64,000 nt of DNA from Deltaproteobacteria bacterium (GCA_040218735.1 JAVJQW010000007.1:128001-192000); one strand, 5' to 3'; shown: positions 5,664 to 23,761, counted from the stretch's first letter. The notes: generated by a model from the letters alone, not told the origin. Translations and numbers: made by a program.

Positions 5664-5667
5664 CCGA

Positions 5668-6499
5668 TCAGAAGCGGCCGACGACGCCGAGCTGCGCCCC
5701 GCCGCGGGTCGGCGCGATGGAGACCGTCGCGGTCGGCTCGTCGGCGGTGTCGATCAGCAGCCACGTGATGCCACCCGCCGCCGACACGACCCCGGCTGCG
5801 ACCAAGAGTCCAGAGATGACGCGCTTCGTGTTGATCGACTGCAGCTCCGAATCCAGCTCGGCGGGGCCGATGCCCACGATGCGCCCCTGGTTGTTTCGCA
5901 TCGCCAAGCGCTCGTCGACGCTCGCGAGCTCCCCCGACGCGACGAACCACAACACGGCCCCCGCCGCGAGCACGCCCGCGCCCGCGCCGAACAGGACGTA
6001 GCCGCCGACGGGCGCGGCGTGGGTCTCGTCGACGGTGACGCGTGCGGTGTTGTTGTTGCGGGGTGCGGACGCCGCTGCCTCCGCCGCGATGCGCGCCGCC
6101 TCGGCTTCCTCGCGTGCGCGCTCGGCGGCGGCGCGGAGGTCTTCGGCGGTCTCGCGCATCTTGGCGTTCTTCTTGCGCTCGCCGATCGTCGCGAGGTGCG
6201 CCTTGGCTTCGTTGCGTTCGTCGACGCTCAAGCCGGGGAGGTCGAGGTACCGGCGCCATAGCGGTTCGGCGGCGTCGATGTCGTCGGCCTCCTGGTACGA
6301 CTTCGCGGCGTTGCGGAGCTGCGCGGGGCGCTTCGACAGCTCGTACGCTTCGAGGAACAGCGCCGCGGCGCGTTGGTACTCCGCGCGTTTGTAGAGCTTG
6401 ATCGCGCGACGGGTGAGCGCGGCCGCCTGCTTCTTCTTCGCGCGCGCTTGGACCGGTGCGGGGGCGATGGCCACGCAGAACGCGACGAGGACGAACCCG

Positions 6500-6525
<26 letters not shown>
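5668..6525 (-). CDS. Secreted TPR protein (myxobacterial type) with C-terminal hydrophobic segments
   Basis: Signal peptide, TPR (LYKRAEYQRAAALFLEAYEL...RRYL), coiled coil, C-terminal 'VSIAPTRGGAQLGVVGRF'. Coupled to the upstream kinase. Confidence 0.7.
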
Positions 6526-8053
<1,528 letters not shown>

Positions 8054-9542: not shown

Positions 9543-10679
9543 TCAGACGACGTCGAGCACGGCGGCGGCGATGGCGTCGACGGTGGCGTCGTCGATGCCG
9601 ACCCACAACGGGAGCCGGACGAGGCGCGCCGAGAGGTCGTCGGTGTGTTCGAGCGAGCCGCTGGTTCGACCGAAGCGTTTCCCGGCCGGCGAGGAGTGCA
9701 GGGGGACGTAGTGGAAGACGGCCATGTAGCCGTCGTCGCGCAGGCGCTTGATGACGTTCGTCCGCACGTCGAGCGACTCCGCGAGCACATAGTACATATG
9801 GGCGTTGTGCACGCGACCGTCCGGGATGATCGGCCGGCGCACGCGACCGTCCGCCTCCGCGGCGGCGAACGCGTCGTGGTAACGGCGCCAGATCTCCAGG
9901 CGTCGATCCGTGATCCCACGCGCCGACTCGAACTGCGCCCACAAAAACGCCGCGACGACCTCGCCGGGGAGGAACGAGGAGCCGACGTCGACCCACGTGT
10001 ACTTGTCGACGTCGCCGCGGAAGAACGCGCTGCGGTTGGTGCCCTTCTCCCAGACGATCTCCGCGCGCTCCGCGAGCTCCGCGTCGTTGATCAACAGCGC
10101 GCCGCCTTCACCCGAGATGATGTTCTTCGTCTCGTGAAAGGAGAGCGCGCCGAGCGAGCCCATCGTGCCGAGCGCGCGGCCTTCGTAGCTCGCGAGCGCG
10201 CCCTGGGCGGCGTCTTCGATCACCATGATCCCGCGCGCGTTCGCGATCTCGAGGATCGCGTTCATGTCGCAGCCGACGCCCGCGTAGTGCACGACGACGA
10301 TCGCCTTGGTGCGTTCGGTGATCGCGGCTTCGATCTTCGACGGGTCGACGTTCAAGCAGGACGGCTCGACGTCGACGAACACCGGGACCCCGCCGCGGAG
10401 CACGAACGCGTTCGCGGTGGACACGAACGTGTACGAGGGCATCACGACCTCGTCGCCGGGCTCGATGCCCGCGAGGATCGCGCACATCTCGAGCGCGGCG
10501 GTGCACGAGTGGGTGAGGAGCGCCTTGTGCGTGCCGGTCGTGTCCTCGAGCCACTTCTGGCAGCGCTTCGTGAACTGACCGTTGCCGGCCGTCTGCCCCG
10601 CTTGGATGGCCTCCTGGATGTACTGGAGCTCCAGGCCCGTCGCGTACGGTTTGTTGAACGGGATCATCGGCCCCAACAT
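9543..10679 (-). CDS. rffA: dTDP-4-amino-4,6-dideoxygalactose transaminase (DegT/DnrJ family)
   Basis: IPFNKPY, SCTAALEM, EDAAQG, SFHETKNIISGEGG (PLP lysine), EKGTNRSAFFRGDVDKYTW, VFHYVPLH. Start may be 10667. Confidence 0.93.
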   Translation of the reverse strand: MLGPMIPFNKPYATGLELQYIQEAIQAGQTAGNGQFTKRCQKWLEDTTGTHKALLTHSCTAALEMCAILAGIEPGDEVVMPSYTFVSTANAFVLRGGVPVFVDVEPSCLNVDPSKIEAAITERTKAIVVVHYAGVGCDMNAILEIANARGIMVIEDAAQGALASYEGRALGTMGSLGALSFHETKNIISGEGGALLINDAELAERAEIVWEKGTNRSAFFRGDVDKYTWVDVGSSFLPGEVVAAFLWAQFESARGITDRRLEIWRRYHDAFAAAEADGRVRRPIIPDGRVHNAHMYYVLAESLDVRTNVIKRLRDDGYMAVFHYVPLHSSPAGKRFGRTSGSLEHTDDLSARLVRLPLWVGIDDATVDAIAAAVLDVV

Positions 10680-10704
10680 ATCCGGGGCCCGCGCGCCGGT
10701 CGAC

Positions 10705-13482
10705 TCAGGAGCCCATGATCTCGTCCATCAGGAGATCGCCGAGCATTCGCGGCAGCTTCTCGGTGTTCTCGACCACCATGCTGTGCTCGTACGTCGTCGG
10801 CACCTGCTGACAGCCGGCGCCGATCCCGATCCCGATGATCTTGATGTCGGTCTCCTGAGCGACGGTGCGCACGGCCTGGTTGTGGTTCGCGACCGCCGCG
10901 CCGTCGGAGAGGAAGATGACGATCTTCTGCTCGGCCGGGCTGTCCTCCAGCATCTGCCGCGCGGCGTCGAGCGCGGCCGTGTCGTTGTTGCCGCCACCGC
11001 CGCGGAGCTTCCCGAGCATCTGCTCGCGCTCCTCCTTGGACTTGTCCTCCTCGATGGGCTTCAGGACCGAGACGCCGCTGTTGTACATCACGACGCCGTT
11101 GCCAACGCCGATCTCGCCGAGCGACTCGAGGAACACCACGAACGCCTCGCGCGCGAACTCCATCTTGCTGTTCGCGCCGTTACCCATCGAGCCGGAGCAG
11201 TCGATGCAGAACACGACCTCGACGCTTCGCTCGCGCGGCTCGTCGCGCTTGAGGAAGATCCGCGGGTCGCCGCGCCCCGTCGCCTGCCGTCGGAACTCAC
11301 TCTGGATCGCCTTGCGGAGATCGTAGACGCCGCCGCGGAAGTGACCGATCAGCTCCGGGATGTCGTCGCGCTGGAAGAAGTTCGTCAGCTCGTCGACCAT
11401 CTCCTGGATCGCGCGTTTGTGTTTCTTGGCGATCTGGTCGTAGGCCGTGAGGTGCGTCCCGTCGTCGCGTCGGTTGCGGATCTTGTCGTCGTAGGTCTTG
11501 AGCAGCTCGTCGAGATCGACCTCGTCGTCCCCGTCGTAGCCGAGCTCGGGCGACGCGCCGGACGCGCCGGTCGTCTCCCACTCACGCTCCGTGACTTTCG
11601 GTCCACCGCTGCGGCCGACGTCCTGGTTGCCGACGTCGCCCGGGTCGTAACCCTCGCGGTCGAGCTCGGCGTCGTGGATCTTGCCGCCCATGTCGCGCGC
11701 GTCGCTCCGTAGCGACTTCGCGAGGGCCTCCTTCGCGGCCTTCGTCGCGGCGTCGTCGGTGTCCTGCACCTCGAGCGGGTTGTCGGGGATCGTGTCGACG
11801 TCGATCGGGTCCTTCCCGTCGGCCGCCATCCCGTGCTCGCCCGTGGGGCGCCCGCCGTTCGCGGCCTTCGAGCCCGCCTTGGCGTCGCCGTCGCTCGGCT
11901 CCGCCGTCCCGGAGCCGCCGCCGCCCGCACCCTCGGACGCCTCGGCGCCCTGCGCGTTGCCGTTGCCGCCGGCGCCTTGCGACTCGCCGCTCCCGTTGGC
12001 TTGCCCCTGGCCGCTGCCCTGTGCGCCGCTCGCGTCGTCGCCGCCCTGCGCGCCCTGCGCATCGCTGCCACCCTGCGCGCCGCCGGCGTCCTGCGCGTCA
12101 CCGGGCTGTTCGCCGCCCTGCGCGCCGCCGGCGTCGTCTGCGCCGTTGGCGTCGTCGCCGCCCTGTGCACCGTTGGCGTCCTGCGCGCCATTGGCGTCCT
12201 GCGCGTCGTCTGCACCGTTGGCGTCGTCGGCGTTCTGCGCGCCGTTCGCATCGTCGGCGTTCTGCGCATCTTCGGCGCCGTTGGCGTTCTGCGCGTCGTC
12301 GGCGCCGTTGGCGTTCTGCGCGTCTTCGGCTCCGTTCGCGTCTTCGGAGCCGTTGGCGTTCTGCGCGTCGTCGGCGCCGTTGGCGTCGTCGGCGTTCTGC
12401 GCGTCGTCTGCGCCGTTGGCGTTCTGCGCGTCGTCTGCGCCGTTGGCCTCGTCGCCGTCCTGCGCGCCCTTCGTGTCCTGCGCGCCGTTCGCGTCGTCGC
12501 CCTTCTTGTCGTCCGCGCCCTGCGACGCATCACCGCTGTCGCGAGAGGACTGCTCCTGCCCGGGCACGTCGGGCGAGGCCTGCTTCTGGGCGTCGAGCCC
12601 GTCCTGCACGTCCTGGTCGAGCAGGCGCTTGTAGATCGGCCAGATCTCGTCGCGGATCACCTCGAAGGAGTGCGCCGCTTCGACGTCCGCCTCCGTCCCG
12701 TCCAGCTCGTCGAACCGCAGGTCGATGTCCGGCGGCAATCGCGTCGCCTTGGCGATCGCGTCGCGCGCTTCGTCGAGCGCCGCGATCACGTCCGGGTCCT
12801 TCACCATCGGATCGCGATCGCCGCCGCTCGCCCACTCGTAGATCGCCGCGAACCCGAACTGCTTCGACTTCGGGACCGTCTTCCCCTGCGCCGCGAACTT
12901 GTCGTACTGCTCCTGCCGTTTCTCCAGATCCAAGAAGTCGCGGTACAGCTCCTTCATCATGATCGGGACGCCCGCGTAGCGCCGGCTGATGATCCGGTTG
13001 ATCCGGATGTCCTCGAGCGAGTTCCACAGGAAGTGGAACGCGGGGTTCTTGATCCGGTCGTCCTTCGGGAGCCGCGAGTACAGCCGGTGCGCGAGCTCGT
13101 GGCAGATCACGCCCATGTTGGAGCGATCGTTTCGCTTCAACATGTCCTTCACCGGGTACGTGATCTTGTTCGAGTCGAAGTGGTACGCCCACCAGCCGCC
13201 GGGCTCCAACTTCATCGAGAAGTCCTTGCCCAGCGTCCGCGCGAGCGTCGAGAGCCGGCGGTGCATCTGCTCCTGCCGACGGAAATCCAACGTCGGATCC
13301 CCGGCGACGCCGCCGTCCTCGTCGAGCTTCGGCACGACCGGGACGGTTCCGTGGAGTCGGCGCTCGAAGCCGCCCTTCACCCCCTGCATCCCCGTCGCGG
13401 CGCGCCGAACGTCGAGCACCGAAGTCCGCGCGTTGCCGAGGTTCACGCCGCGCGTAGGTCCCTTGCCGATCGTGACCATCAC
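10705..13482 (-). CDS. CobT-like vWA protein: N-terminal HEXXH metallopeptidase-like domain, acidic low-complexity linker, C-terminal vWA/MIDAS
   Basis: GVICHELAH...WNSLEDIRIN, D/A/N/G/Q-rich repeat, and vWA with CIDCSGSM, GGGNND and IFLSDG. Confidence 0.85.
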   Translation of the reverse strand: MMVTIGKGPTRGVNLGNARTSVLDVRRAATGMQGVKGGFERRLHGTVPVVPKLDEDGGVAGDPTLDFRRQEQMHRRLSTLARTLGKDFSMKLEPGGWWAYHFDSNKITYPVKDMLKRNDRSNMGVICHELAHRLYSRLPKDDRIKNPAFHFLWNSLEDIRINRIISRRYAGVPIMMKELYRDFLDLEKRQEQYDKFAAQGKTVPKSKQFGFAAIYEWASGGDRDPMVKDPDVIAALDEARDAIAKATRLPPDIDLRFDELDGTEADVEAAHSFEVIRDEIWPIYKRLLDQDVQDGLDAQKQASPDVPGQEQSSRDSGDASQGADDKKGDDANGAQDTKGAQDGDEANGADDAQNANGADDAQNADDANGADDAQNANGSEDANGAEDAQNANGADDAQNANGAEDAQNADDANGAQNADDANGADDAQDANGAQDANGAQGGDDANGADDAGGAQGGEQPGDAQDAGGAQGGSDAQGAQGGDDASGAQGSGQGQANGSGESQGAGGNGNAQGAEASEGAGGGGSGTAEPSDGDAKAGSKAANGGRPTGEHGMAADGKDPIDVDTIPDNPLEVQDTDDAATKAAKEALAKSLRSDARDMGGKIHDAELDREGYDPGDVGNQDVGRSGGPKVTEREWETTGASGASPELGYDGDDEVDLDELLKTYDDKIRNRRDDGTHLTAYDQIAKKHKRAIQEMVDELTNFFQRDDIPELIGHFRGGVYDLRKAIQSEFRRQATGRGDPRIFLKRDEPRERSVEVVFCIDCSGSMGNGANSKMEFAREAFVVFLESLGEIGVGNGVVMYNSGVSVLKPIEEDKSKEEREQMLGKLRGGGGNNDTAALDAARQMLEDSPAEQKIVIFLSDGAAVANHNQAVRTVAQETDIKIIGIGIGAGCQQVPTTYEHSMVVENTEKLPRMLGDLLMDEIMGS
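12120..12500 (-). repeat. Intragenic tandem repeat, ~27-bp/9-aa unit (GADDAQNAN and variants)
   Basis: Repeated gcgccgttggcgttctgcgcgtcgtc units on the + strand, in frame within the vWA gene. Confidence 0.9.
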
Positions 13483-13892
13483 TCGACCTCACTCGCCGGA
13501 GCGACCGTCGCGCCCTCGGCCGACATCACCATCGGGAACATGGACGCCACCGGCTCGTCCGGTCGCGCCGGCGCGAGCGCCACCACGCGGAGGTCGTCGC
13601 GCACCGTCCCGTCGACGAGCTGTCCCTCCAACACCTGGGACAGCACGCCGCGCGTCGCGTCGTCGACCGACGCGCCGAGCCACACGAGGAGCGTCGAATC
13701 CTCCGCGATGCGCTCGGACACCGCCTGGTCGAGGTCGGCCTCCGACAGCTCGTCCGTCCGCAGATCGAGTGGCCGAGCGCCGGGCAGGCCCGCGCGGAGC
13801 GCGCGGTGCACGGCCTCGTTCGCGCCGAAGATCAACACGGAGCTGCGGCTGCGCAGGATCGTGTCGAGGAGCGTGGAACCCGCCGTACTCAC
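13479..13892 (-). CDS. Small protein resembling a degenerate (inactive) AAA+/MoxR P-loop domain
   Basis: 4-nt overlaps with both neighbours. SVLIFG (Walker A region without GKT), LDLR, LLVWLG (Walker B without DE), VLSQVLEG...VRDDLRVVALA follow the MoxR secondary-structure order. Confidence 0.6.
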   Translation of the reverse strand: MSTAGSTLLDTILRSRSSVLIFGANEAVHRALRAGLPGARPLDLRTDELSEADLDQAVSERIAEDSTLLVWLGASVDDATRGVLSQVLEGQLVDGTVRDDLRVVALAPARPDEPVASMFPMVMSAEGATVAPASEVE

Positions 13893-16800
13893 TTCGCGAT
13901 CTCCTGTGCCTTCTCGAGGATGACGTCGTTGTCTTCGTGGTGGCTCGATGCTGCGTACGTCGCCTGCACCGCGAGCAGGTACGCCGTCGCCGGGCCGAGC
14001 TCGCCGGAGAACTCCGAGACGAGGTTCGTCGCGTTCATCAGCTGCCGCACGGAGTAGACGGGGCGGTCACGCTCGCGCATGTCCTTGCCGAGGGTCTCGT
14101 CCTCGTACGCCGACTGAATCCACATGTGCAGATCCACGAGCGTGTCGGTGATCGCCTCGCTCACGCCCTTCGCCTTCCCGAGGGCGCGCAGGATCTCCTT
14201 CTGCTCGTCCGCTTCGTCGAGGTCCGGGACCGCGATCATCGTGAAGCGGTTCTGCATCGCCTTGCTGAGCTTCGAGCGCCCGCCGTACTCCTTCGTCGGC
14301 GGGTTCATCGCCGCGATGAACCTGAACTGCGGGTGCAGGCGAACCTCCTCGCCCTCCTTCTCCGCGAGGACGATCTTACGTTCGTCGTCGAGCACGGAGT
14401 TGAGGCGCTCGAGGAGCGCCGGGTTCGCGAGGTTGAACTCGTCACCCACGAACACCCCCGGGACGTTCTCGGGGCGCGCCGCGTCGAGGAGGAGGCCGTC
14501 CTTCCAGCCCGTGTCGTCGTAGCCGCCGATCAGCTGCATGCCGTCCGTCGAACCCGAGAGCAGCTGCCGCTGGTACGGCTGTCCGCGGAGCATCGCGAAC
14601 ATCTTGGCCATCGCCGTCTTGCCGGACGCGCGCGCGCCGACCATCGCGACGTTCTCACCCATGTCGAGCGCCTTCGCGAGGCGGTACATGATCTGCGTCG
14701 TCCGCTTCGTCATCACCAGCCGCGCCGACTCACCCGGGACGAGCGCGTGCTCCGCGTTCACCTTCGCGAGCGTGACGTCGCCGATCGTGAACGTGTCCTT
14801 GTCCTCCTTCAGCTCGAGGTCCTCGTAGAAGTCCGGTCCGGTGTACGGCATCGCCGCGGTGAGGATGTCCTTCACCGTCTGCACGTCTTCGGGATCGAAC
14901 AACCCGCCGAGGTAGAGCTCCTCGACCTCACGACGCATCGCCGCTTCGTCCGAGAGCTCCCCACCGCTGTAACGCACGAACCGATCCGCCGCGCGGAACA
15001 GGTTGCGCAGCGTGAACGCCACGCCGCCGCTCTGGCGCCCGATCTCACCCTCGTCCGCGAGACGCGAGAGGTTGTCGTGCACCGCGACCAGCTTCGCCAT
15101 CTCCTCCGTGGGGAGCTTCGAGCCGTAGACCGTGCTCATGATCTGCGTGAGATCCGAGCGGGTGAGCCCGTGCGCGAAGACGTTGTTCCAGCGCGATCGC
15201 ATCGCGTCCGACAGACGCGCGCGCCCCGAGTACGACGCGGGGTTCATCGTCGCGAACAGCCGGAAGTTGTCGTCCGGCGCGATGACCTCGTTGTGGTGCT
15301 CGGTGAGGACCACGTTGCCGTCGTCGTCGAACAGCGAGTTCAGCCGCTCGAGCACCTCCGGTCGCGCGAGGTTCATCTCGTCGAGGAGAAGCACCTCGCC
15401 CTTCTTCATCGCGCGGATGACGGGACCGTCCACCCAACGCGGCTTGAGCTGCGCGGCGAGGATCTGATCCGAGGCGACTTCGCGCGAAGCACCTTCGGGC
15501 ACGCCGTACTCTTCGGACACCGCGGCGAGCTCGGCGTCGGACATCTTGTCGAGGTCCGGCTTGCTGTACCGGTTCTCACCGCCCACGTACTTACCGAGGA
15601 GGTCCGAGACATCCGTGAAGTACGACAGGTTGATCCGGCGGTACGGCGAGTTGGTCTTGTACGCGAGGTACCGAACCGCGGACGTCTTGCCGGAGCTCGT
15701 CGGACCCTCGAGGAGGACCGGGCGCTTCTGCCGCCACGCCGCGGCCATCAGCTTCAGGTTGAGCTGCGTGGTCCGCGTCATCACGAGATCCGAGTGCTGC
15801 TTGCGCGGCACTGCGCGCGTGTCGCGATCCGTACGCGAGTTCTCGGCGACCTCGACGCCGGCCACCGTCACCGTCTTCGTCCCCTCCGGGAACGGACGCT
15901 TCGCCTCGAACAACGCCGCGGCCACGCCGCCGAGCTCCTGGTCGGCCTGCGCGAGCGGGAGCACGTTGGCGAGGTCCGCCTGGTACAGCTGACCGAGCGC
16001 CGTCCGCGCGAGCGCTTCGACGTCCGCGAACTTGCCGCCGTCGAGGACACCCTCGACGAGCGCCTTGGCGGCGTCGTCCTTCTTCGCGACGCCGGCCTTG
16101 ATGTGCGCGGTCACCGCGCCCTCGACCTTCGAGAGCGCCTCGGGCGCGAGGAGCGCGACCGTCTCCGGACGCAGCGCAGCGCGGAGGTTTTCGAGGGCCC
16201 CCTCGTCGGCGTCGGCCTTCGCCTTCAGGAAGTCGATGATCGTCTTCCGCTTGGCGCTGCCTTCCTTCGCCGCGGCCGCCTCGTCGAGGAGCGCCTCGTA
16301 GAGGCCGACCGGATCGGCCTCTGCCGATGCGTCGTGGAGGGTCTCGAGGTCCTTGGTCGTCACCTCGCTCCCCGTGAGCGCCGCGCGGATCGGGAGGCTC
16401 GTGAAGTCCGCCTCGTCGCGGATGCTCAGGAACGGCGCGAGCGTCGTGCGGAGCTCCTCGCCGCTCATGCCCTGGAGCTTGCCGGCGACGTTCGCCCAGG
16501 CCTTCGCGCTGTCTTCGTCTACGCCTTCGCGCTCCAGGGCCGTCTGGATTCGGTCGGGGGAGATTCGCGTCGTCAGCGCCAACAGGATCGGACCGACGAC
16601 CACGTGCGGCCACGCGTCGAGCACGTTCTCTGCGATCGACAGCTGCGCCTCGATGTTCACGCCCGACATCGAGCCCGGCTCGAGCTTGCCGTCGGCGATG
16701 GCGTCGATGACGCGCGGGAGGAGCTCGGACAGCTCCGGTCGCTCGTCGTCCCACGCCAACATCCCCAGCACGGCGTTGCGACGCTGCGCGTGCGAGACGT

Positions 16801-19090
16801 CGGCGGCTGGATCGAGCGCAGCGAAGTGTTCGTCGAGCTTCGTCTTCGCGGCCTTCGACAGCGAGTCGGGGCGGCGCAGCGCCTTCATCCGCGGGTCGTC
16901 GGTCAGCGGGTAGTTCGTCCCGTCCTGCCGATACAATCGAACGTGCTCGAAGTCGACGCTGGCGGCCTTCGCCATCCGCGCGATCTGCGGGATCGTGTCG
17001 TCCAGCACCATGTTGTACGGGACCTGCGCGAGGAACGCCTGCGCTTGCGCCTGCGCCTGGTTGCCGTCGGGCAGCTTCCCATCGGCGGCGAGCTCGACGA
17101 TTCGAGCGACGGCCGTGAACGCACGCGCGTCACTGCCGTAGTGGTTGAACCAGCTGCTCGGGTTCCCGACGTTGTACATGTCGCGCGCGAGCGCTTCGTC
17201 CGACGCCTCGAAGAGCTTGGGGTCGCGCGCCTGGTACGCGGCGTTCGCGTCCGGGTGGTTGCCGAGCGGCTTTCCTCCCGGGACGTCGTACTGCACGACG
17301 CGCTGGCGCGGGACCTCGCCCATCGCCCCCGCGCGGAGCTGCGCGAGACGTGACTGTCCCGCCTTGAACGCGCCGACCTGTCCGAGCGTCACGCCGACCG
17401 TCGTCGACCAGTTGATGGCCTGCGCGCCGAGGCCGGCCTTCTCGACGAGGCGCGCGACGTGCGCCATCACATCGGCGTCGTTGACCAGCGAACCCTGGAT
17501 GCGCTGCTGCACGAAGTGTTGCAGGTAGGTCGCGTCGAACTGCCCCAGCTCGATGCCGCGCTCCCAGAGCTTCAGCACGCCGACCGTCCAGCCCTTGTCC
17601 TGCGCCGAGTCGTTCGTCGACGGGAAGTGGTACGGGGACTGGTAGGTCGAACGGACGTGCGCGACCGACGCGTCGTCGATCGCGAGCGCGCTCGCGTCGT
17701 AGACGCCGAAGCGCTGCTGTACGACCTGCGCGTTCGCGAGGCTCTCGGTCCCGGCGGGGCGCTTCCCGAGCTCGACGCGCACGCGTCCGCCCGCGGTGGG
17801 GAGCGGGCGACCGTGGAACTCGGTCGACTCGATCGCGTGCTCCGCACCCGCCGCGGCCATCGCGCGCGCGAGGACCGCCGCCGCTTCCTCGGTGTCGGGG
17901 AGGACCTGCGCGATGGCCGGCCAGTCGGTCATCGGCGCCGGGTTGCCGACCTCGGCGAGCCGGGCCCACAGGCGGAGCATCGCGACGCGCACCTCGCCCG
18001 TCTTCGGCTCACCGAGCCGGACCAGCCGGTTGTCGTTCATGAAGCTCTCGTAGTTCTGCCAAGTCTGGGCGAGCGACCGCACCGCGTCGTCGCTGAGCGC
18101 GAGCTGGTCGACCTGCCCGGCACGCGCCGCGTTGATGACCGCTTGGTTGTTTCCCGTTTGCGTCCCCAGGGCTTCGCTCCGCTCCACCGTGCTTCGACGC
18201 CGGGCGCGCTTCGACGTGGCCTCGGGTAGCTGCGGCCCCCACTCGGAGAGCGGCGCGCCGTGGAAGGTCACGTTCGCGGGGTCCTCACCGCGCGCCTTCA
18301 CCAGGCGAAGCGCGACGGAAGCGCCCTCGTCGGTCTTCGGGAGCCGCGCGAGTGATTGCGCCCAGTTCGTGACGTTGCACCCGTTCTGGTTCGTGAGGCC
18401 GAGCTCGTTGACGCGGGCGAAGATCCTGAAGTGCGCGATTACCGTCGGTTCGTCCCTCGCTTCCGCCAGCGCTTGCTCGAGGTTGTTCCACCAGGAGGGG
18501 GAGATCTGCGTCCGGATGGTGTCGTCGTCGATCGCGAGTTTGTCGGCGTTACCGCCCTGCCGCGCGAAGTTGATAAGGTTGGTCGCGTTGTCCGCGGTCG
18601 TTCCGAGCGCCTCGGCGGGCTCGGCTTCGAACGGTTTGACGAAGTCGACCGACGCGCGGAGCAGGTCCGCGAGATCCTCCGGCACCGAGACGTCGCCCAA
18701 GAACTCGGCGATCGCGCGGAGCAGCTCTGGGTGGTCCGCCATGCGGCGCGCGACCTTCAGAGACGGGTAGTAGTTGCGCAGCGACGCCTGCGGATCGATC
18801 CCGGTGTTGGCGACGCGACCGCCGAACGTCATCTTGGTCGACGCCTCGGCCCGCGCGACCTGGAGCAGCTTCTTCGCCTTCGCCAGCCCGACGTCGTGCT
18901 CGAGCTTCCCGGCCGGCTCCGAGAAGAAGAGCTGGCCGTCCGACACGAAGATGTCCCCACGGTCGGGCGTCGCGCGGACACGCGCCGCGTTCTGCGCGCC
19001 GTCCGTGCCTTCGAGTCGAGCGGTGGGTCGGGGGTCGATGCGACCTGGAATGGAGGTGGTCATCCTTAAAGCGCCTACATCGGATGACAT
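13889..19090 (-). CDS. Large AAA+ ATPase with two tandem midasin/dynein-like (AAA_5/MoxR clade) domains and a long repeat-containing N-terminus
   Basis: AAA1: VLLEGPTSSGKT, WVDGPVIRAMKKGEVLLLDEMNLA..VLERLNSL, FRLFATMNP, LSDAMRSRW. AAA2: GARASGKT, WKDGLLLDA, FVGDEFNLA..LLERLNSVLDDERKIVLAE, FRFIAAMNP, LSKAMQNRF. Start may be 19063 (MTTSIPG). Confidence 0.9.
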   Translation of the reverse strand: MSSDVGALRMTTSIPGRIDPRPTARLEGTDGAQNAARVRATPDRGDIFVSDGQLFFSEPAGKLEHDVGLAKAKKLLQVARAEASTKMTFGGRVANTGIDPQASLRNYYPSLKVARRMADHPELLRAIAEFLGDVSVPEDLADLLRASVDFVKPFEAEPAEALGTTADNATNLINFARQGGNADKLAIDDDTIRTQISPSWWNNLEQALAEARDEPTVIAHFRIFARVNELGLTNQNGCNVTNWAQSLARLPKTDEGASVALRLVKARGEDPANVTFHGAPLSEWGPQLPEATSKRARRRSTVERSEALGTQTGNNQAVINAARAGQVDQLALSDDAVRSLAQTWQNYESFMNDNRLVRLGEPKTGEVRVAMLRLWARLAEVGNPAPMTDWPAIAQVLPDTEEAAAVLARAMAAAGAEHAIESTEFHGRPLPTAGGRVRVELGKRPAGTESLANAQVVQQRFGVYDASALAIDDASVAHVRSTYQSPYHFPSTNDSAQDKGWTVGVLKLWERGIELGQFDATYLQHFVQQRIQGSLVNDADVMAHVARLVEKAGLGAQAINWSTTVGVTLGQVGAFKAGQSRLAQLRAGAMGEVPRQRVVQYDVPGGKPLGNHPDANAAYQARDPKLFEASDEALARDMYNVGNPSSWFNHYGSDARAFTAVARIVELAADGKLPDGNQAQAQAQAFLAQVPYNMVLDDTIPQIARMAKAASVDFEHVRLYRQDGTNYPLTDDPRMKALRRPDSLSKAAKTKLDEHFAALDPAADVSHAQRRNAVLGMLAWDDERPELSELLPRVIDAIADGKLEPGSMSGVNIEAQLSIAENVLDAWPHVVVGPILLALTTRISPDRIQTALEREGVDEDSAKAWANVAGKLQGMSGEELRTTLAPFLSIRDEADFTSLPIRAALTGSEVTTKDLETLHDASAEADPVGLYEALLDEAAAAKEGSAKRKTIIDFLKAKADADEGALENLRAALRPETVALLAPEALSKVEGAVTAHIKAGVAKKDDAAKALVEGVLDGGKFADVEALARTALGQLYQADLANVLPLAQADQELGGVAAALFEAKRPFPEGTKTVTVAGVEVAENSRTDRDTRAVPRKQHSDLVMTRTTQLNLKLMAAAWRQKRPVLLEGPTSSGKTSAVRYLAYKTNSPYRRINLSYFTDVSDLLGKYVGGENRYSKPDLDKMSDAELAAVSEEYGVPEGASREVASDQILAAQLKPRWVDGPVIRAMKKGEVLLLDEMNLARPEVLERLNSLFDDDGNVVLTEHHNEVIAPDDNFRLFATMNPASYSGRARLSDAMRSRWNNVFAHGLTRSDLTQIMSTVYGSKLPTEEMAKLVAVHDNLSRLADEGEIGRQSGGVAFTLRNLFRAADRFVRYSGGELSDEAAMRREVEELYLGGLFDPEDVQTVKDILTAAMPYTGPDFYEDLELKEDKDTFTIGDVTLAKVNAEHALVPGESARLVMTKRTTQIMYRLAKALDMGENVAMVGARASGKTAMAKMFAMLRGQPYQRQLLSGSTDGMQLIGGYDDTGWKDGLLLDAARPENVPGVFVGDEFNLANPALLERLNSVLDDERKIVLAEKEGEEVRLHPQFRFIAAMNPPTKEYGGRSKLSKAMQNRFTMIAVPDLDEADEQKEILRALGKAKGVSEAITDTLVDLHMWIQSAYEDETLGKDMRERDRPVYSVRQLMNATNLVSEFSGELGPATAYLLAVQATYAASSHHEDNDVILEKAQEIAK

Positions 19091-19236: not shown

Positions 19237-20244
19237 TCAGGTGCGCTCGGCGGGTGACCCGTGGTCAGCCCACGTTCGCTCGCGGACGATGAAGATCGGG
19301 CGACGCTTCACCTCGGTGAAGATGCGATCCACGTACAGGCCCAGGACGCCGAGCGTGAAGATGATCGCGCCCGTCGAAAAGTTCAGCGACACCATCAGCG
19401 ACGGCCACCCCATCACCGGGCTGCCGTACACCAATGCGCTGAAGAACAGGTACGCGCCCCCGAGCACCGACAGACCCGCGAGCGCGATCCCCAACCCCAC
19501 GCAGAGGCGCAGCGGTTTGTTCGAGTAGGCGAGGATGATCGGGATCGCCATCCGGAACAGCTTGAGGAGTGTGTACGACGACTCACCCGCGTGTCGCGTC
19601 GCGTGTTCGACGTCGATGTACGCCTTCTTGAAGCCCATCCAGTTGAGGAACCCGCCGTAGAAACGCACGGCTTCTTCCATCTGCAGGAGCTGCCGCACGA
19701 CCTGCCGCGACACACACGAGAAGTTCGCGACGCTGCCGTCGTAGTTCAGGTCGGTGAGGTAGTTGAACGTGGCGTAGAACATCACGGAGCTCATCTTCTT
19801 GCTCCACTTGTCCTGACGCTGCGCGCGCCGCGCGAGCACCACGTCGAAGCCCTCCTGCGCCTTCGCGTACAGGCGCGGGATCTCTTCGGGGCGATCCTGG
19901 AGGTCGCAGTCCATCACCACGATCCAGTTCCCGCGCGCCGATGCGAGGCCCGCGGTGATCGCCGGGTGCTGCCCGAAGTTGCGCGACAGCTGCTGCCCGC
20001 GCACGCGCGGATCCTTCGCGGCGATCTCTTGGATGCGCGCCCACGAGTCGTCCGGGCCGCAGTCCTCCGTGAGGATGATCTCGAAGTCCTCGGTGATCGT
20101 CTCGAGGTTTTCGACGAGCCGGCGGTGCAGCTCGTCGAGGCACCCGGCGCCGGCGTAGACCGGCACGACGACGGAGATCTCCAGCCGGTCGTCGGGCTCG
20201 GCCATCGCGATCCAAGTCTTAGCGGAAATGAGCGGAGCGTTCAC
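19237..20244 (-). CDS. Glycosyltransferase family 2 (GtrB/ArnC-like polyprenol-phosphate glycosyltransferase)
   Basis: ISVVVPVY, SRNFGQHPAITAGL, VMDCDLQD, two C-terminal TMs, EVKRRPIFIV. Confidence 0.92.
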   Translation of the reverse strand: MNAPLISAKTWIAMAEPDDRLEISVVVPVYAGAGCLDELHRRLVENLETITEDFEIILTEDCGPDDSWARIQEIAAKDPRVRGQQLSRNFGQHPAITAGLASARGNWIVVMDCDLQDRPEEIPRLYAKAQEGFDVVLARRAQRQDKWSKKMSSVMFYATFNYLTDLNYDGSVANFSCVSRQVVRQLLQMEEAVRFYGGFLNWMGFKKAYIDVEHATRHAGESSYTLLKLFRMAIPIILAYSNKPLRLCVGLGIALAGLSVLGGAYLFFSALVYGSPVMGWPSLMVSLNFSTGAIIFTLGVLGLYVDRIFTEVKRRPIFIVRERTWADHGSPAERT

Positions 20245-20247
20245 GTT

Positions 20248-21555
20248 TTAGCCGTCCTCGCGCCGCCAACGGTCCCAGCCCAGGACGATGACGTACGCCG
20301 CAAACGCGCACAGGAACAGGTAGACCGGCTGGGAGTAGCGCGGCTCCGTGCTGTGCAGCGGAAGGAAGATGAGCGTGTTGTAGACGATGGGGATCGCGAG
20401 CCACGCGAGCCAGGAGCGCCGCCAGACGGAAATGAGCAGCCCCGCCCACCCCAGCAGAACGATCGCGCTGTTGATCGCGAACAGCGCCGCCTTGAAGACC
20501 CACCACGCGGGTGCGCCGTAGGCGAGGAAGCTCGGCCGGAAGCTGAACACGTCGAAGCGCGTGCCGAACCACATCTGCGGGGCGCGGTAGAGCCAGCGCC
20601 CGAGCACCGCGAACGGCTCTTCGCGGTAGCGGTCGAAAGCCAGCTTGCGCATCGCTTTGTCACGCGGCGCGTCCTTCAGCTTCAGCGCGTCCTCGACCTC
20701 CGCCTTCTCGTCCGGGGTGCGGAACGAACCCGCGGGGGGGCCATCATCGAAGCCGCCCTTCACGAGCCAGTCGCCGTTCGTCTCCCACGTCCCGATCCAC
20801 AGCCCCTGTCCGAGGATGCCCTTGCTCACCGGGATGATCTGTCCGGAGACGTGGTGGTTGCGCGCCGTCCACGGGGCGATCGCGAGGATCGCGCCGCACA
20901 CGAGCAGCGCCGCAGAGCCCAGCCTTCTCTTGAGTGGAATCTCCTCGACCCACCCGTGCACGAAGTCGAACGGGAGCAGCACCGCCGTGAACGGGATCAG
21001 CGCGAGGTACACGTCTCGCGTGAGCGCGGCGAGGCCGAGCAGCGCACCCATCCCGAGCCACGCCGCGCGGTGTTTCCACAGCACGGGGAGGGCGACCGCG
21101 GCGACGAGGAAGAACGTCGTCAGCGTCTCGGAGAGCATCGCGCCCGCGTAGACCGCGTTGGCGGGGACGAGCGCGCCGAGCCACAGCGTCCACCGCGCGA
21201 TGCGCGTGACGAGGAGCTCCACCGTCTTCGCGCAGAGGACGACCGTCGCGGTGCTGATCACGACCTGCGCGAGCTGCACCGCGAGCGGCGCGCGCCACAC
21301 GCGGTAGAGGAGCGCGACGAAGCCGGGGAACAGCGGCGGCCGGTAGTACGTCGGCGCGATCGGCGGCTCGAGCGACAGCGAGAACGTCCCGTGGTCGACG
21401 AGGTTCTTCGCGAGGTGGTCGTACCAGAAGCTGTCGCCGGTATCGAAGCGGTAGGCGACCAGCACCAACATCACCAGACGCACCGCGAGCGCGACGACGA
21501 CCGCGAGCCAGACCTCGTTCCGATCGAGCCGGTACTGGGGGCCGTACGCACGCAC
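20248..21555 (-). CDS. ArnT/PMT-like (GT-C) integral membrane glycosyltransferase
   Basis: Multiple TMs, DSFWYDHLAKNL, YRPPLFP, LSETL, LAALTR, PWTARN, PRYSQP. Confidence 0.8.
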   Translation of the reverse strand: MRAYGPQYRLDRNEVWLAVVVALAVRLVMLVLVAYRFDTGDSFWYDHLAKNLVDHGTFSLSLEPPIAPTYYRPPLFPGFVALLYRVWRAPLAVQLAQVVISTATVVLCAKTVELLVTRIARWTLWLGALVPANAVYAGAMLSETLTTFFLVAAVALPVLWKHRAAWLGMGALLGLAALTRDVYLALIPFTAVLLPFDFVHGWVEEIPLKRRLGSAALLVCGAILAIAPWTARNHHVSGQIIPVSKGILGQGLWIGTWETNGDWLVKGGFDDGPPAGSFRTPDEKAEVEDALKLKDAPRDKAMRKLAFDRYREEPFAVLGRWLYRAPQMWFGTRFDVFSFRPSFLAYGAPAWWVFKAALFAINSAIVLLGWAGLLISVWRRSWLAWLAIPIVYNTLIFLPLHSTEPRYSQPVYLFLCAFAAYVIVLGWDRWRREDG

Positions 21556-21561
21556 CGGTCG

Positions 21562-22548
21562 TTACCGGGCCCGGGCGACGATCAGGCGCGACGACCCCAT
21601 GGGGAGCGTGACGCTCGGGACACCGAGGAGCAGGCGCTCGGCCTGCATCACGCGGGACAGGACCGCGTTCGTGAGGCGACCGATCTCGAACTGCTTCATC
21701 ACGTCGTCGGAGGTCTTGGTCGTGGCGTCGTTCTTCTTGCGCGAGAGGAAGAGCGCGGGGAGCAGCAGGCTCATGAACGACGTGGTGTAGAGGATCTCGA
21801 AGCCGGCGCTCTCGACCTTCGCCTCGAGCGCACCCGGTTCGTAGCGGCGCTTGTGGCCGGAGAGCGCGTCGACCTCGCTCCACAGGAACTGGTGCTGCGG
21901 GACCGTGAGCATCAGGCCGCCCTTGGGCTTCACGGCGCGGCGGATCTCGGCGAGGACGGTGTCGTCCTCGTCGATGTGCTCGATGACGTCGAACGCGCCG
22001 ATGACGTCGAAGGCCTCCGCGAACGGGAGGCGGCGCGCGTCGACCTGGAAGAACCGCGCGTCGGGCAGGCGGGACTTCGCGAACGCGAGCCCCTCCAGGT
22101 GGATCTCACTTCCGTGCAGTCGGTAGCCGAGGTTCGTATCCGCGACGCCCGTCAGGACGAAGCCCGTGCCGCAGCCGATCTCCAGGAACGCGCCGCCCCC
22201 GGGGAAGTGCTCGGCGAGGCTCCGCTGGATCAGCTTGTTGCGGTTCACGAACCAGAAGTTCTCCGCCTCGACGCGCGCCAGCTCGGGGAAGAACGCGGTG
22301 TCGTAGCCGTCGTAGGTCGCGGCGACCTCCTCCGAGAACACGCCGATGCCGTCGGCGATTCGGTAGGTCGCATCGCAGGACGTGCAGCGGTAGCCACCGT
22401 CGGGTGCGCCGAGCGCGGCGCGACAGGCGGGGCAGACGAGGCCGGGCAGATCGGCGTTCACGACGCTCGATGGTGCCGGCGGGGCGGACTCGAATTCATG
22501 GCTGGGTGACGTCACGGCCTCGGCCCGTTCATCGGCCGAATGTTCCAA
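21562..22548 (-). CDS. Class I SAM-dependent methyltransferase with Trm112-like Zn ribbon
   Basis: CPAC...CTSC, NFWFVNRN, LEIGCGTG, FDVIEHI, LWSEVD..SGHKRRY. Start uncertain. Confidence 0.88.
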   Translation of the reverse strand: MEHSADERAEAVTSPSHEFESAPPAPSSVVNADLPGLVCPACRAALGAPDGGYRCTSCDATYRIADGIGVFSEEVAATYDGYDTAFFPELARVEAENFWFVNRNKLIQRSLAEHFPGGGAFLEIGCGTGFVLTGVADTNLGYRLHGSEIHLEGLAFAKSRLPDARFFQVDARRLPFAEAFDVIGAFDVIEHIDEDDTVLAEIRRAVKPKGGLMLTVPQHQFLWSEVDALSGHKRRYEPGALEAKVESAGFEILYTTSFMSLLLPALFLSRKKNDATTKTSDDVMKQFEIGRLTNAVLSRVMQAERLLLGVPSVTLPMGSSRLIVARAR

Positions 22549-22668: not shown

Positions 22669-23757
22669 ATGAAACTCATACTCGAAGACGGAACCGAGCT
22701 CTCCGGGGACAGCTTCGGTGCGCACCGATCCGTGGCCGGCGAAGTGGTCTTCAACACCAGCATGACCGGCTACATCGAGACGCTGACCGACCCCTCGTAC
22801 CGCGGCCAGATCCTCGTGCTGACGTACCCGCTGATCGGCAACTACGGCGTCCCACCCGATCGTGAGGCCGGGGCGATGAACCGGCCGTTCGAGTCGAACG
22901 AGATCCAGGTCATGGGGCTGGTCGTCCAGAACTACGTCGACCACCACAGCCATCACGCATCGCGTCGTTCGCTGGCGGAGTGGCTCAAGAGCCAGAACAT
23001 CCCGCTCCTGTCGGGCATCGACACCCGCCGCCTCACGCAGAAGCTCCGCGAGAAGGGGACGATGCGCGGCTGGGTCGTCGCCGGCGGCAACGTCGACTGG
23101 GAGAAGAAGAACGCCGACCGCGTCGACATGCGCAAGGAGGTCTTCGAGCTCGTCGCGCCGAAGGAGACCGTCACGCACGACGGCAAGGGTGCGCACATCC
23201 TCCTCGTCGACGCCGGCTGCAAGGACAACATCTGCCGCTCGCTCCTCGAGCGCGGCGCGAAGGTGACCCGCGCGCCCTACCACGCGGACATCGTCGCGCT
23301 GGCGCAGGAGGCCGACGGGGTGCTGCTCGGCAACGGCCCGGGCGACCCGAAGGACCTCAGCGAGCTGATCGCCAAGGTCCGCGAGCTGCTCGGCACCTAC
23401 TCGAAGCCGATGATGGGGGTCTGCCTCGGCAACCAGATCCTCGCCCTCGCGGCGGGCGGCGACACCGGGCCGCTCAAGTATGGGCACCGCAGCGTGAACC
23501 AGCCCGTGCAAGATCTGTTGACGCGGCGCTGCTACATCACGAGCCAGAACCACGGCTACCACGTGCTCGACGAGTCCCTCCCCGACGACTGGGAGCCCTG
23601 GTTCGTGAACCTGAACGACGGCACCAACGAAGGTGTTCGCCACCGGAGCAAGCCGTTCTTCTCGGTGCAGTTCCACCCCGAGGCCTCCCCGGGCCCGCAG
23701 GACACCGCTTATCTGTTCGACGACTATCTCCGCCTCGTGGCGGCGGTGAGGAGCTGA
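22669..23757 (+). CDS. carA: Carbamoyl-phosphate synthase small subunit
   Basis: GEVVFNTSMTGY.E.LTDPSY, NGPGDP, GVCLGNQ (catalytic Cys), SQNHGY, VQFHPE. Confidence 0.97.
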   Translation: MKLILEDGTELSGDSFGAHRSVAGEVVFNTSMTGYIETLTDPSYRGQILVLTYPLIGNYGVPPDREAGAMNRPFESNEIQVMGLVVQNYVDHHSHHASRRSLAEWLKSQNIPLLSGIDTRRLTQKLREKGTMRGWVVAGGNVDWEKKNADRVDMRKEVFELVAPKETVTHDGKGAHILLVDAGCKDNICRSLLERGAKVTRAPYHADIVALAQEADGVLLGNGPGDPKDLSELIAKVRELLGTYSKPMMGVCLGNQILALAAGGDTGPLKYGHRSVNQPVQDLLTRRCYITSQNHGYHVLDESLPDDWEPWFVNLNDGTNEGVRHRSKPFFSVQFHPEASPGPQDTAYLFDDYLRLVAAVRS

Positions 23758-23761
23758 AACC

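Follow-up and report, generated by a model that had tools for sequence, protein, structure and literature searches.

Three adjacent deltaproteobacterial genes as a candidate separate-subunit form of a prokaryotic midasin-type AAA+/MIDAS machine

The DNA analyzed here, referred to as the window, is a stretch of 64,000 nucleotides (nt) from a Deltaproteobacteria bacterium (GCA_040218735.1, JAVJQW010000007.1:128001-192000) with a G+C content of about 68-70%; all positions are counted from its start. On the minus strand it carries three consecutive genes which encode a tandem AAA+ ATPase (P0001), a small protein (P0002) and an adaptor protein (P0003) ending in a von Willebrand factor A (vWA) domain with a metal ion-dependent adhesion site (MIDAS) (Table 1). 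A sequence-only reading of the window had described three minus-strand genes joined by 4-nt overlaps, and the open reading frames (ORFs) and junctions indeed lie where it placed them. Both junctions are GTGA overlaps, namely ...AAG TGA / GTG... between P0001 and P0002 and ...GAG TGA / GTG ATG... between P0002 and P0003; the ATG one codon downstream is an alternative start of P0003. The G+C content at third codon positions (GC3) amounts to 0.92, 0.92 and 0.93 for P0001, P0002 and P0003, as in the neighboring real genes and unlike overlapping shadow ORFs. Long contigs of an independent metagenome contain the same arrangement together with both flanks at about 99% identity (28 and 56 differences over 3.1 and 8.6 kb). 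Short contigs of one metatranscriptome library cover all three genes at about 92-98% identity, which does not in itself imply transcription.

Table 1. Genes and protein regions of the three-gene module (window coordinates; aa, amino acids)
Feature	Position	Strand	Basis
P0001, tandem AAA+ ATPase, 1733 aa	13889..19090	-	ORF, GC3, Pfam, PDB match to midasin
P0001 N-terminal region, aa 1-1095, no known family	15806..19090	-	no Pfam/NCBIfam/Atlas match; varies among homologues
P0001 AAA module D1, aa 1101-1321, Walker A and Walker B, insert at profile position ~72	15128..15790	-	alignment, profile, motifs
P0001 D1 lid, aa 1313-1413, AAA_lid_7 'Midasin AAA lid'	14852..15154	-	Pfam 25.8 bits, cut-off 22.7
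P0001 AAA module D2, aa 1457-1637, compact, Walker A and Walker B intact	14180..14722	-	alignment, profile, motifs
P0001 D2 C-terminal lid, aa 1643-1733, AAA_lid_5; predicted P0002 contact surface	13892..14164	-	Pfam (match 1643-1697), complex prediction
P0002, putative Walker-less AAA+ alpha/beta core without lid, 137 aa	13479..13892	-	predicted fold, Myxococcota orthologues
P0003, adaptor (zincin-like domain, tether, pre-vWA element, vWA/MIDAS), 925 aa	10705..13482	-	ORF, Pfam, motifs
P0003 zincin-like domain, aa 62-298, HELAH 128-132 and Glu157	12589..13299	-	AF2 model, structural neighbors, relatives
P0003 acidic Gly/Ala/Asn/Gln-rich disordered tether, aa 299-640	11563..12588	-	composition, imperfect tandem repeats
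P0003 pre-vWA element, aa 641-750, GHFRGGVYDLRKAIQ...DPRIFLKR	11233..11562	-	alignment to midasin MIDAS N-terminal extension and NorD finger region
P0003 vWA domain, aa 751-925, MIDAS DCSGS 761-765	10708..11232	-	Pfam, motif, profile

Judged from its sequence, P0001 carries two catalytically intact AAA modules of the dynein/midasin type, D1 and D2, behind a long lineage-specific N-terminal region. Two complete AAA+ domains had been claimed for this protein, and Pfam bears this out: AAA_5 (PF07728) matches with 133.8 bits (cut-off 22) in three stretches that make up two modules. The Walker A motifs are found at residues 1129-1136 and 1485-1492 and the Walker B DE at 1237-8 and 1550-1; FATMNP and MQNRF are also present, and in all 24 aligned homologues both D1 and D2 keep the lysine of Walker A and the Asp-Glu of Walker B without exception. 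According to our own reading of the alignment, conserved Asn and Arg residues of the modules probably occupy the sensor 1 and arginine-finger positions.

We compared P0001 with the sequences of known structures in the PDB using phmmer. Midasin was by far the best match (2e-102, with single-module stretches of 43-69 bits), against 1e-9 (38-40 bits) for CbbQ/NorQ and 2e-5 for CobS. When D2 alone was used as query at E 0.01, none of 11 single-domain AAA_5 paralogues extracted from the same genome was matched, and every module of six eukaryotic midasin fragments was, with up to 78 bits. Together with the module tree described below, these matches agree with the earlier view that the AAA domains are closest to midasin and not to ordinary CobS or MoxR proteins. 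A profile of the compact module is split by the insert in D1 and runs unsplit through D2; in six eukaryotic midasins the same profile is split at position ~72 in AAA2, AAA4 and AAA6 in nearly all cases and unsplit in AAA1, AAA3 and AAA5. In a plant midasin fragment Pfam places lid_7 after AAA1 (three lid_7 stretches in all) and lid_5 after AAA2. The lids thus equate D1 with the odd modules of midasin, whereas the insert equates it with the even ones, and therefore no simple orthology can be drawn.

The N-terminal region of P0001 contains two repeats of about 145 aa (aa ~157-295 and ~303-444, 34% identity, E 8.5e-20) and weaker further copies, which were found by segment-by-segment comparison; plain self-BLAST gave none. 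Among the ATPase homologues this region varies in length and content. Several of them carry N-terminal Pfam accessions which we take to be LRR, MORN and discoidin families.

The partner protein P0003 had been read as a HEXXH protein with an acidic tract and a vWA domain bearing a MIDAS, and all three parts were recovered, the vWA domain with 53 bits in Pfam. HELAH, NSLEDIRIN (154-162) and DCSGS are present in the translation, as are the other motifs quoted in that reading. In addition, the MIDAS module of P0003 turned out to be most similar to that of midasin as well. Searching the PDB sequences with a profile of the last 271 residues gave the MIDAS part of midasin as best match (6qt8, 2.5e-13, profile positions 11-156, which include the pre-vWA element); Schizosaccharomyces pombe Mdn1 4406-4591 followed with 8.8e-12, CobT with 1.5e-3 and NorD with 3.3e-3. 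The NorD-aligned segment of P0003 begins at NorD residue 413-415. According to PMC13036017, the finger of NorD comprises residues 403-448 and enters the pore of the NorQ hexamer. The MIDAS motif DxSxS is kept in seven of the eight aligned homologues that reach the vWA domain, and the eighth, at locus L005, reads D-I-S-K-S.

Between the zincin-like domain and the pre-vWA element lies the tether, which has a net charge of -56, contains 5% hydrophobic residues and is encoded by imperfect tandem repeats of 27-135 nt. Its length and composition differ in every homologue, the equivalents being Gly/Gln-, Ser- or Ser/Pro/Asp/Gly-rich. The repeats are fragile in assemblies (window 12010-12521; L001 ~17200-17680; L003 16559-16866): two orthologues in metagenome-assembled genomes (MAGs) are frame-broken in the tether, and contigs of the independent metagenome end at 12100 and 12420. 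Possibly the tether length really varies from strain to strain.

For the zincin-like domain we obtained an AlphaFold 2 (AF2) model from an alignment of eight sequences, with a predicted local distance difference test (pLDDT) of 86.9 and a predicted template modeling score of 0.82. In the model one helix and three strands precede the HELAH helix, which is followed by a second helix with Glu157; H128, E129, H132 and E157 sit on the predicted helices 58-74 and 86-107 of the domain model. With the structural aligner VIA, HtpX was matched with Z 7.4 (root mean square deviation, rmsd, 2.4; 70 residues aligned), selecase with 7.0, jannalysin with 6.7 and ZMPSTE24 with 6.5, and at least 11 of the best 15 structural neighbors are metallopeptidases or zincin-like proteins. 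A profile of the domain found nothing below E 0.46 among the PDB sequences. Midasin and NorD did not appear among the structural matches, which is still compatible with a relationship. As a word-indexed search with the zincin region gave only three matches, an exhaustive profile search was used instead; it yielded 829 representative proteins with the domain at E <=1e-3 and 227 at E <=1e-10. Of 160 aligned domain rows, taken from 152 proteins, 127 have an intact HExxH motif and 138 have the Glu ligand.

The small protein P0002 had been described as following the AAA fold without Walker residues. This is carried by the predicted structure and not by sequence profiles. The AF2 model (pLDDT 81.7, six sequences) is a five-stranded alpha/beta domain for which Foldseek gave 11 matches at E <=1e-3 (best E 4e-4, probability 1.0); those listed are AAA+ proteins (ORC2, RuvB, ATAD1, Cdc48), and the RuvB matches have a query TM-score of about 0.6. 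In a wide structural search with VIA the best 50 matches were all AAA+ proteins (Z 8.2-10.0, with 110-132 of the 137 residues aligned), among them dynein, NorQ, CbbQ and S. pombe Mdn1 (Z 9.9, rmsd 3.1, 122 residues aligned). The sequence GANEAV stands at the P-loop position and LGAS at the hDE position of Walker B, and the lid is missing. Orthologues of 117-153 aa with 25-33% identity occupy the same position, with the 4-nt overlap with the ATPase gene, at five Myxococcota MAG loci. A profile of six P0002 sequences found no match in the Oligoflexales loci or in three further Myxococcota loci, its five matches being its own input sequences. Going by these searches, the gene for the dead AAA protein appears confined to one Myxococcota subgroup.

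We also predicted a complex of P0002 with residues 1095-1733 of P0001. The score was 0.77 (0.77-0.78 in three runs), and the best control reached 0.00. Of 80 solved complexes 58 pass the mark applied, as do 2 of 110 mismatched pairs; this calibration holds only roughly here because custom alignments were used. Contact agreement between the runs was at least 91% and the pLDDT of the partner at least 81. On the P0001 side the predicted contacts are in D2 at 1487-8 (Walker A), 1550 (Walker B) and 1506-1519 and in the C-terminal lid at 1674-1729; on the P0002 side they include residues 77-86 with the invariant Arg81. In the model the site of P0002 would correspond roughly to the position of the neighboring protomer in an AAA ring.

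To find relatives of the whole module we searched with both the ATPase and the adaptor. Among the best 120 of 256 matches of the tandem AAA search, 30 come from Deltaproteobacteria/Myxococcota-type MAGs and metagenomes, are 1040-1907 aa long and show 39-99% identity, and the remaining listed ones are mostly eukaryotic midasins or midasin-like giants with 25-32% identity. In the databases these proteins go under unspecific names ('AAA family ATPase', 'MoxR-like ATPase', 'Zn-dependent protease with chaperone function/MoxR-like ATPase'). A search of a genome collection with an alignment of 10 closer ATPase sequences gave eight loci, one of them (L008) eukaryote-like. At five Myxococcota loci the order is ATPase, small gene, adaptor, and at two Oligoflexales loci the adaptor follows the ATPase without a small gene, so a zincin-vWA gene adjoins the ATPase in seven of seven family loci. 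The expectation that the trio would be conserved together thus holds in part: the pair of ATPase and adaptor is shared by Myxococcota and Oligoflexales, and the trio was found within one Myxococcota subgroup. One locus, L005 of a Myxococcaceae MAG, has two ATPase paralogues, 4401-6998 (865 aa, short N-terminus) and 9890-14176 (1428 aa, long), which are 87% identical over 863 residues and enclose one small gene and one adaptor gene, the longer paralogue standing after the adaptor. In the Oligoflexales adaptors (L006:11205-, L007:6438-) the called N-termini start hydrophobic, MKIALLSIGLNLVSGF..., and look like a signal or a membrane anchor, which would be unexpected in a protein that works with a cytoplasmic ATPase; the start codon may be miscalled.

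Using the ATPase as query, we found the family in two of 19 other genomes of the same taxonomic family and in none of 41 others. With the zincin domain as query the 401 genomes of the phylum gave 10 places in nine genomes, the genome of the window included. Nine of these places lie beside a midasin-type AAA sequence and the tenth on a 2.4-kb contig. Six of the ten are the window or loci already known via the ATPase; two lie in a genome of another family (G219) and one, distant, in G037, and all of these adjoin AAA sequences. The second copy in G219 (L038, G219:C39, 10415-13439) reads zincin domain, then half of D1 and D2, without a vWA match, and represents either a copy in rearrangement or decay or another kind of fusion. 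A genome of the same genus (75% complete) has a zincin gene on a short contig, and a metagenome scan with the zincin alignment gave one 1.5-kb locus that was of no use. Nine proteins flanking the module in the window were sought at the other loci, where none recurs except for a paralogous kinase match; the neighbors there are a glycine dehydrogenase, a lectin, a catalase, an FGE-sulfatase and a PEGA protein. With no conserved flanks and few carriers, the module is therefore self-contained and patchily distributed.

The same building blocks also occur in single chains. We classified the architecture of 152 zincin-domain proteins (the best 150 of the 829 and P0125 and P0126) and found a P0003-like vWA domain in 110 and a fusion to midasin-type AAA modules in 18. 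P0157 (1836 aa) reads AAA-AAA-zincin-vWA; P0221, labeled Halobacteriota by one source, reads zincin-vWA-AAA-AAA; in P0173, labeled Omnitrophota and partial according to its source, no vWA domain was seen. P0195 (4471 aa) and P0246 (4005 aa, 'AAA family ATPase [Thermoproteota archaeon]') have three AAA pairs followed by zincin and vWA domains. Relatives of the family span Myxococcota, Oligoflexales, Omnitrophota, Thermoproteota and Halobacteriota. As the zincin-like domain is part of the family everywhere, fused giants included, it cannot be kept as an addition made by this operon, which the sequence-only reading had suggested. The genome of the window itself encodes a 4107-aa single chain on another contig, C58 (L041:2647-14970, plus strand), a fused midasin-like giant next to the split module. 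In it AAA_5 occurs in four or more modules, together with AAA_lid_7, and vWA domains stand at the C-terminus; it has a DESSS MIDAS motif and a pre-vWA element like that of P0003, and phmmer with the zincin domain of P0003 gave no match in it.

A quick IQ-TREE analysis of 99 AAA modules over 184 columns, with support from the Shimodaira-Hasegawa-like approximate likelihood ratio test only, placed nine single-domain AAA_5 paralogues of this genome apart from all midasin-type modules (support 91). Four modules, own_C20_d1 and own_C58giant_d1, d2 and d5, had been left out beforehand as partial or poor matches. The D1 modules of the family form one starred clade (value 100) and the D2 modules another (99), neither of them nested in any eukaryotic module clade, and the family is therefore no recent acquisition from eukaryotes. 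Eukaryotic AAA1, 2, 3, 5 and 6 each lie on one side of a branch; AAA4 needs two changes and has the second module of L008 inside. In the fused prokaryotic proteins, first modules and second modules make up two additional starred groups. The three AAA pairs of P0195 are nearly identical (branch lengths 0-0.07), which points to a recent internal triplication of the two-module unit. A topology with all eukaryotic modules and L008 as one clade was not rejected by the approximately unbiased (AU) test (p-AU 0.253). The tree leaves the deep order undecided, including whether prokaryotic and eukaryotic pairs share a two-module ancestor. Accordingly, the suggestion that the operon rebuilds the midasin layout from separate chains has no support as to its direction: the split form is found in two bacterial phyla, fused forms in bacteria and archaea, and the tree is silent on which came first.

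The eukaryote-like locus L008:10028-12244 comes from a Cyclobacteriaceae MAG (1.07-Mb contig). Its 738-aa ORF has two modules nested in the eukaryotic AAA3 and AAA4 clades (starred, 100 each), and because of this nesting the contig probably holds eukaryotic DNA or a recent transfer. A zincin or vWA gene was not detected beside the ORF.

Taking these observations together, we think it rather probable that the three genes are the separate-subunit form of an undescribed family of prokaryotic midasin-type AAA+/MIDAS machines for remodeling and proteolysis, a self-contained module which is scattered horizontally. Membership in the family is more certain than this overall interpretation, and the mechanism which we propose for it is less certain. 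The mechanistic model draws on PMC13036017, which deals with NorQ-NorD. Three P0001 chains would build a six-module ring, as the fused relatives with three AAA pairs suggest. The pre-vWA element, the vWA domain and the C-terminus of P0003 could dock on or in this ring by analogy to NorQ-NorD and as reported for midasin, whose VWA finger lies in the AAA pore according to the same paper. As in NorQ-NorD, the MIDAS site might grip an acidic residue of a client protein, and ATP hydrolysis might then pull, twist or stretch the tether between the vWA and N-terminal domains, so that the client is remodeled. The conserved HExxH...E signature suggests that the zincin domain probably cuts the client or the tether. 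P0002 may bind the nucleotide face and the lid of D2 as a regulatory or ring-completing dead subunit; alternatively it could be an arginine-donating or blocking neighbor of D2, or take a third ring position, 2x(D1-D2-P0002). The variable N-terminus of P0001, finally, may select the client or the location.

Several points speak against this interpretation. The stoichiometry of the ring derives only from the fused relatives. If P0002 sits at the position of the neighboring protomer of D2, ring closure in the form 3x(D1-D2) would be impossible at this site; an assembly of 2x(D1-D2-P0002) might exist in its place, or P0002 could be an inhibitor. The complex prediction may have passed because of likeness and not because of binding, as AAA-AAA packing is abundant in solved structures. 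In an hhalign comparison the family profile of P0002 shows no sequence similarity to D2 (probability 0.08), and the AAA assignment of P0002 therefore depends on the predicted fold alone. Residues 1-1095 of P0001 gave no match in Pfam or NCBIfam and no usable match in the ESM Atlas, and this unexplained region is likely the key to the function. As for the zincin-like domain, no curated Pfam peptidase family matches it, and Foldseek gave weak local matches, the best being the minigluzincins selecase and jannalysin (E ~0.6, probability 0.87-1.0, about 77 or more columns). The structural matches to the zincin fold have Z 5-7.4, and values below 8 can reflect a common arrangement. Moreover, the two Oligoflexales adaptors read ARESGH, with Arg in place of the first His; peptidase activity is therefore not universal in the family, and catalysis has probably been lost in these adaptors.

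Midasin (Rea1/Mdn1/MDN1), the AAA+ protein that strips assembly factors from eukaryotic pre-60S ribosomal particles, resembles the module in its AAA_5 modules with midasin-type lids, lid_7 then lid_5, in the insert at the same profile position in alternate modules and in the acidic disordered tract directly before the MIDAS domain, here on a separate chain; it is also the best PDB sequence match of both the ATPase pair and the pre-vWA and MIDAS module. It differs in having six AAA modules per chain and not two as in P0001, in uniting ATPase and MIDAS in one chain and in its linker of about 1700 residues; no such linker was detected here, where P0001 and P0003 match midasin in the AAA and MIDAS parts only. 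Furthermore it lacks the zincin-like domain and the separate dead AAA subunit which are present here. As the host is a prokaryote, the role of the module cannot be nucleolar ribosome assembly. Most of the single-chain prokaryotic giants, such as P0246, also share the blocks of the module and their order, with AAA pairs followed by the zincin-like domain, the tether and vWA. They differ in being fused, in having from two to more than six AAA modules and in lacking a separate gene for a dead AAA protein.

Among the MoxR 'CGN' group, NorQ-NorD and CbbQ-CbbO likewise consist of an AAA_5 ATPase gene beside an adaptor gene, the adaptor having an N-domain, a flexible linker, a finger and a vWA domain, and the finger region of NorD aligns with the conserved segment GHFRxGxYDLRKAIQ seen here; NorQ-NorD is the best structural model for the way in which the adaptor might engage the ring. 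CobS-CobT, the aerobic cobaltochelatase, has the same kind of ATPase with an adaptor of N-domain, acidic tract and vWA. One could accordingly regard the module as a dedicated maturation chaperone of this kind for metal insertion into, or reactivation of, a single enzyme, perhaps one of the neighboring glycan pathway. The common adaptor layout and the detectable relationship to NorD fit this, as do a DegT-type aminotransferase gene starting 25 nt past P0003 and weak CobT matches in Pfam: CobT_C matches P0003 with 21.4 bits at a cut-off of 21, and the CobT N-terminal family matches four of eight isolated zincin domains (best E 0.008), matches which are gone when whole proteins are scanned. The known members, however, have one AAA module per chain, form homohexamers in the case of NorQ and CbbQ and are far less similar to the module than midasin is (1e-9 for the ATPase, 3e-3 for the adaptor). 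NorQ-NorD and CbbQ-CbbO have a known client enzyme encoded nearby and lack a HExxH domain and a dead AAA subunit, whereas the HExxH...E signature is kept in most members of the present family and no client-type gene is conserved beside the module at any other locus. P0001 also stays far below the cut-offs of the NCBIfam equivalogs (CobS 38.6 versus 558.55; GvpN 86.3 versus 266.8), and unlike CobS its ATPase is tandem and stands in no cobalamin gene context. We therefore consider a maturation chaperone improbable. A biological-conflict system against phages or other invaders, similar to the MoxR-vWA ternary systems of multicellular prokaryotes, deserves somewhat more weight but is still unlikely in our opinion; the zincin domain would be its effector and the variable N-terminus of the ATPase its sensor. 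According to Kaur, Burroughs, Iyer and Aravind (2020, PMC7159879) these systems combine a MoxR-clade ATPase and a vWA partner in social bacteria, and rare metallopeptidase domains are fused to their vWA component. The patchy occurrence of the module, its unconserved flanks, its hypervariable tether and ATPase N-termini and its hosts, which are social or predatory lineages, would all suit such a role. Patchiness alone is, however, compatible with any accessory function, and the window holds no phage, integrase or defense-island context. For the anti-phage and predation-effector roles raised in the sequence-only reading, the patchy distribution is the one observation with any bearing. The ternary systems have VMAP, beta-propeller, FtsH or iSTAND third components, none of which Pfam detects in the three proteins or their neighbors, and their ATPase is not of the tandem midasin type. 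bpMoxR (PF20030) reaches P0001 with 27.1 bits at a cut-off of 27, beneath the far stronger AAA_5 match. PADLOC gave nothing meaningful for the three proteins, the best result being a 42-residue P-loop stretch with E 3.5e-4. With neither a PADLOC model nor a described third component, the module does not match a described ternary system, in line with the earlier suggestion that it may be undescribed.

It could finally be argued that the genes are a fragment of eukaryotic midasin which was acquired horizontally, or is a contamination, and was then split. Midasin is the best characterized relative of both halves, and L008 from the same search does have modules of eukaryotic type. Against this stand the separate starred clades of D1 and D2 outside every eukaryotic module clade, the GC3 values equal to those of host genes, the recovery of the arrangement on long contigs of an independent metagenome, the spread of relatives over bacteria and archaea and the zincin domain, for which midasin has no detectable counterpart, so that we regard a eukaryotic origin as very improbable. 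On present sequence evidence the module seems to be a MoxR-clade ATPase with a vWA adaptor which is set apart by the midasin-type affinity of both halves, the constant zincin domain and the Myxococcota-specific dead AAA subunit.

A full-text literature search found no paper on prokaryotic tandem midasin-type ATPases with a zincin-vWA partner; the supplementary tables of PMC7159879, which lay outside this search, may list the family. Other papers that mention midasin proved irrelevant (PMC11003981 on lipoprotein MIDAS adhesins, PMC5758913 on targets of DGRs (diversity-generating retroelements), PMC12428579 with a mention in the reference list, and PMC10732040), and the text of PMC7203096 that was searched does not contain the term. 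According to PMC3495828 and PMC7159879, dynein and midasin have their closest prokaryotic homologue in single-module MoxR, and the six-module array originated in early eukaryotes. Among well-studied AAA+ machines, only midasin and dynein form their ring from a single polypeptide. With a family that has 2-, 4- and 6-module forms and is nearest to midasin in both halves, the origin of the single-chain ring becomes testable. Tentatively, and with more doubt than confidence, we suggest that the prokaryotic family of two AAA modules and a zincin-tether-MIDAS adaptor is the sister group or the direct precursor of eukaryotic midasin, and that midasin, and via midasin the dynein-type single-chain ring, arose through a fusion and triplication of the kind found in the six-AAA relatives of archaea and bacteria. 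In the published alternative a single-module MoxR was amplified in early eukaryotes only. If this were true, the dead AAA subunit of the Myxococcota would represent a third kind of ring position and a natural intermediate between homo-oligomeric and single-chain rings. The module may also serve as a simple bacterial model, since its ATPase part has 640 residues and its partner 137, the MIDAS adaptor being separable, whereas midasin chains have about 4,700-4,900 residues; such a small model would be useful for studying how the MIDAS is coupled to the AAA ring. Moreover the module may turn out to be a new type of ATP-dependent protease or a conflict system.

A scan for promoters and terminators over the region was uninformative, with no promoter-like and two terminator-like sites, fewer than in shuffled sequences. 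The carA and carB genes, divergent from 22669 (window 22669-26992, plus strand), and a Ser/Thr protein kinase gene downstream on the same strand as the module (6500-8053, minus strand) are ordinary genes with no link to it. The module is flanked on both sides by glycan-type genes in the same orientation (window 19237-22548 and 9543-10679, minus strand). On the upstream side these encode a methyltransferase, an unknown 435-aa protein and a family-2 glycosyltransferase, with a gap of 146 nt between the glycosyltransferase gene and P0001, and on the downstream side the DegT/DnrJ aminotransferase. None of the genes of this cluster turned up at the other loci, which suggests that the module was inserted into a glycan-type cluster.

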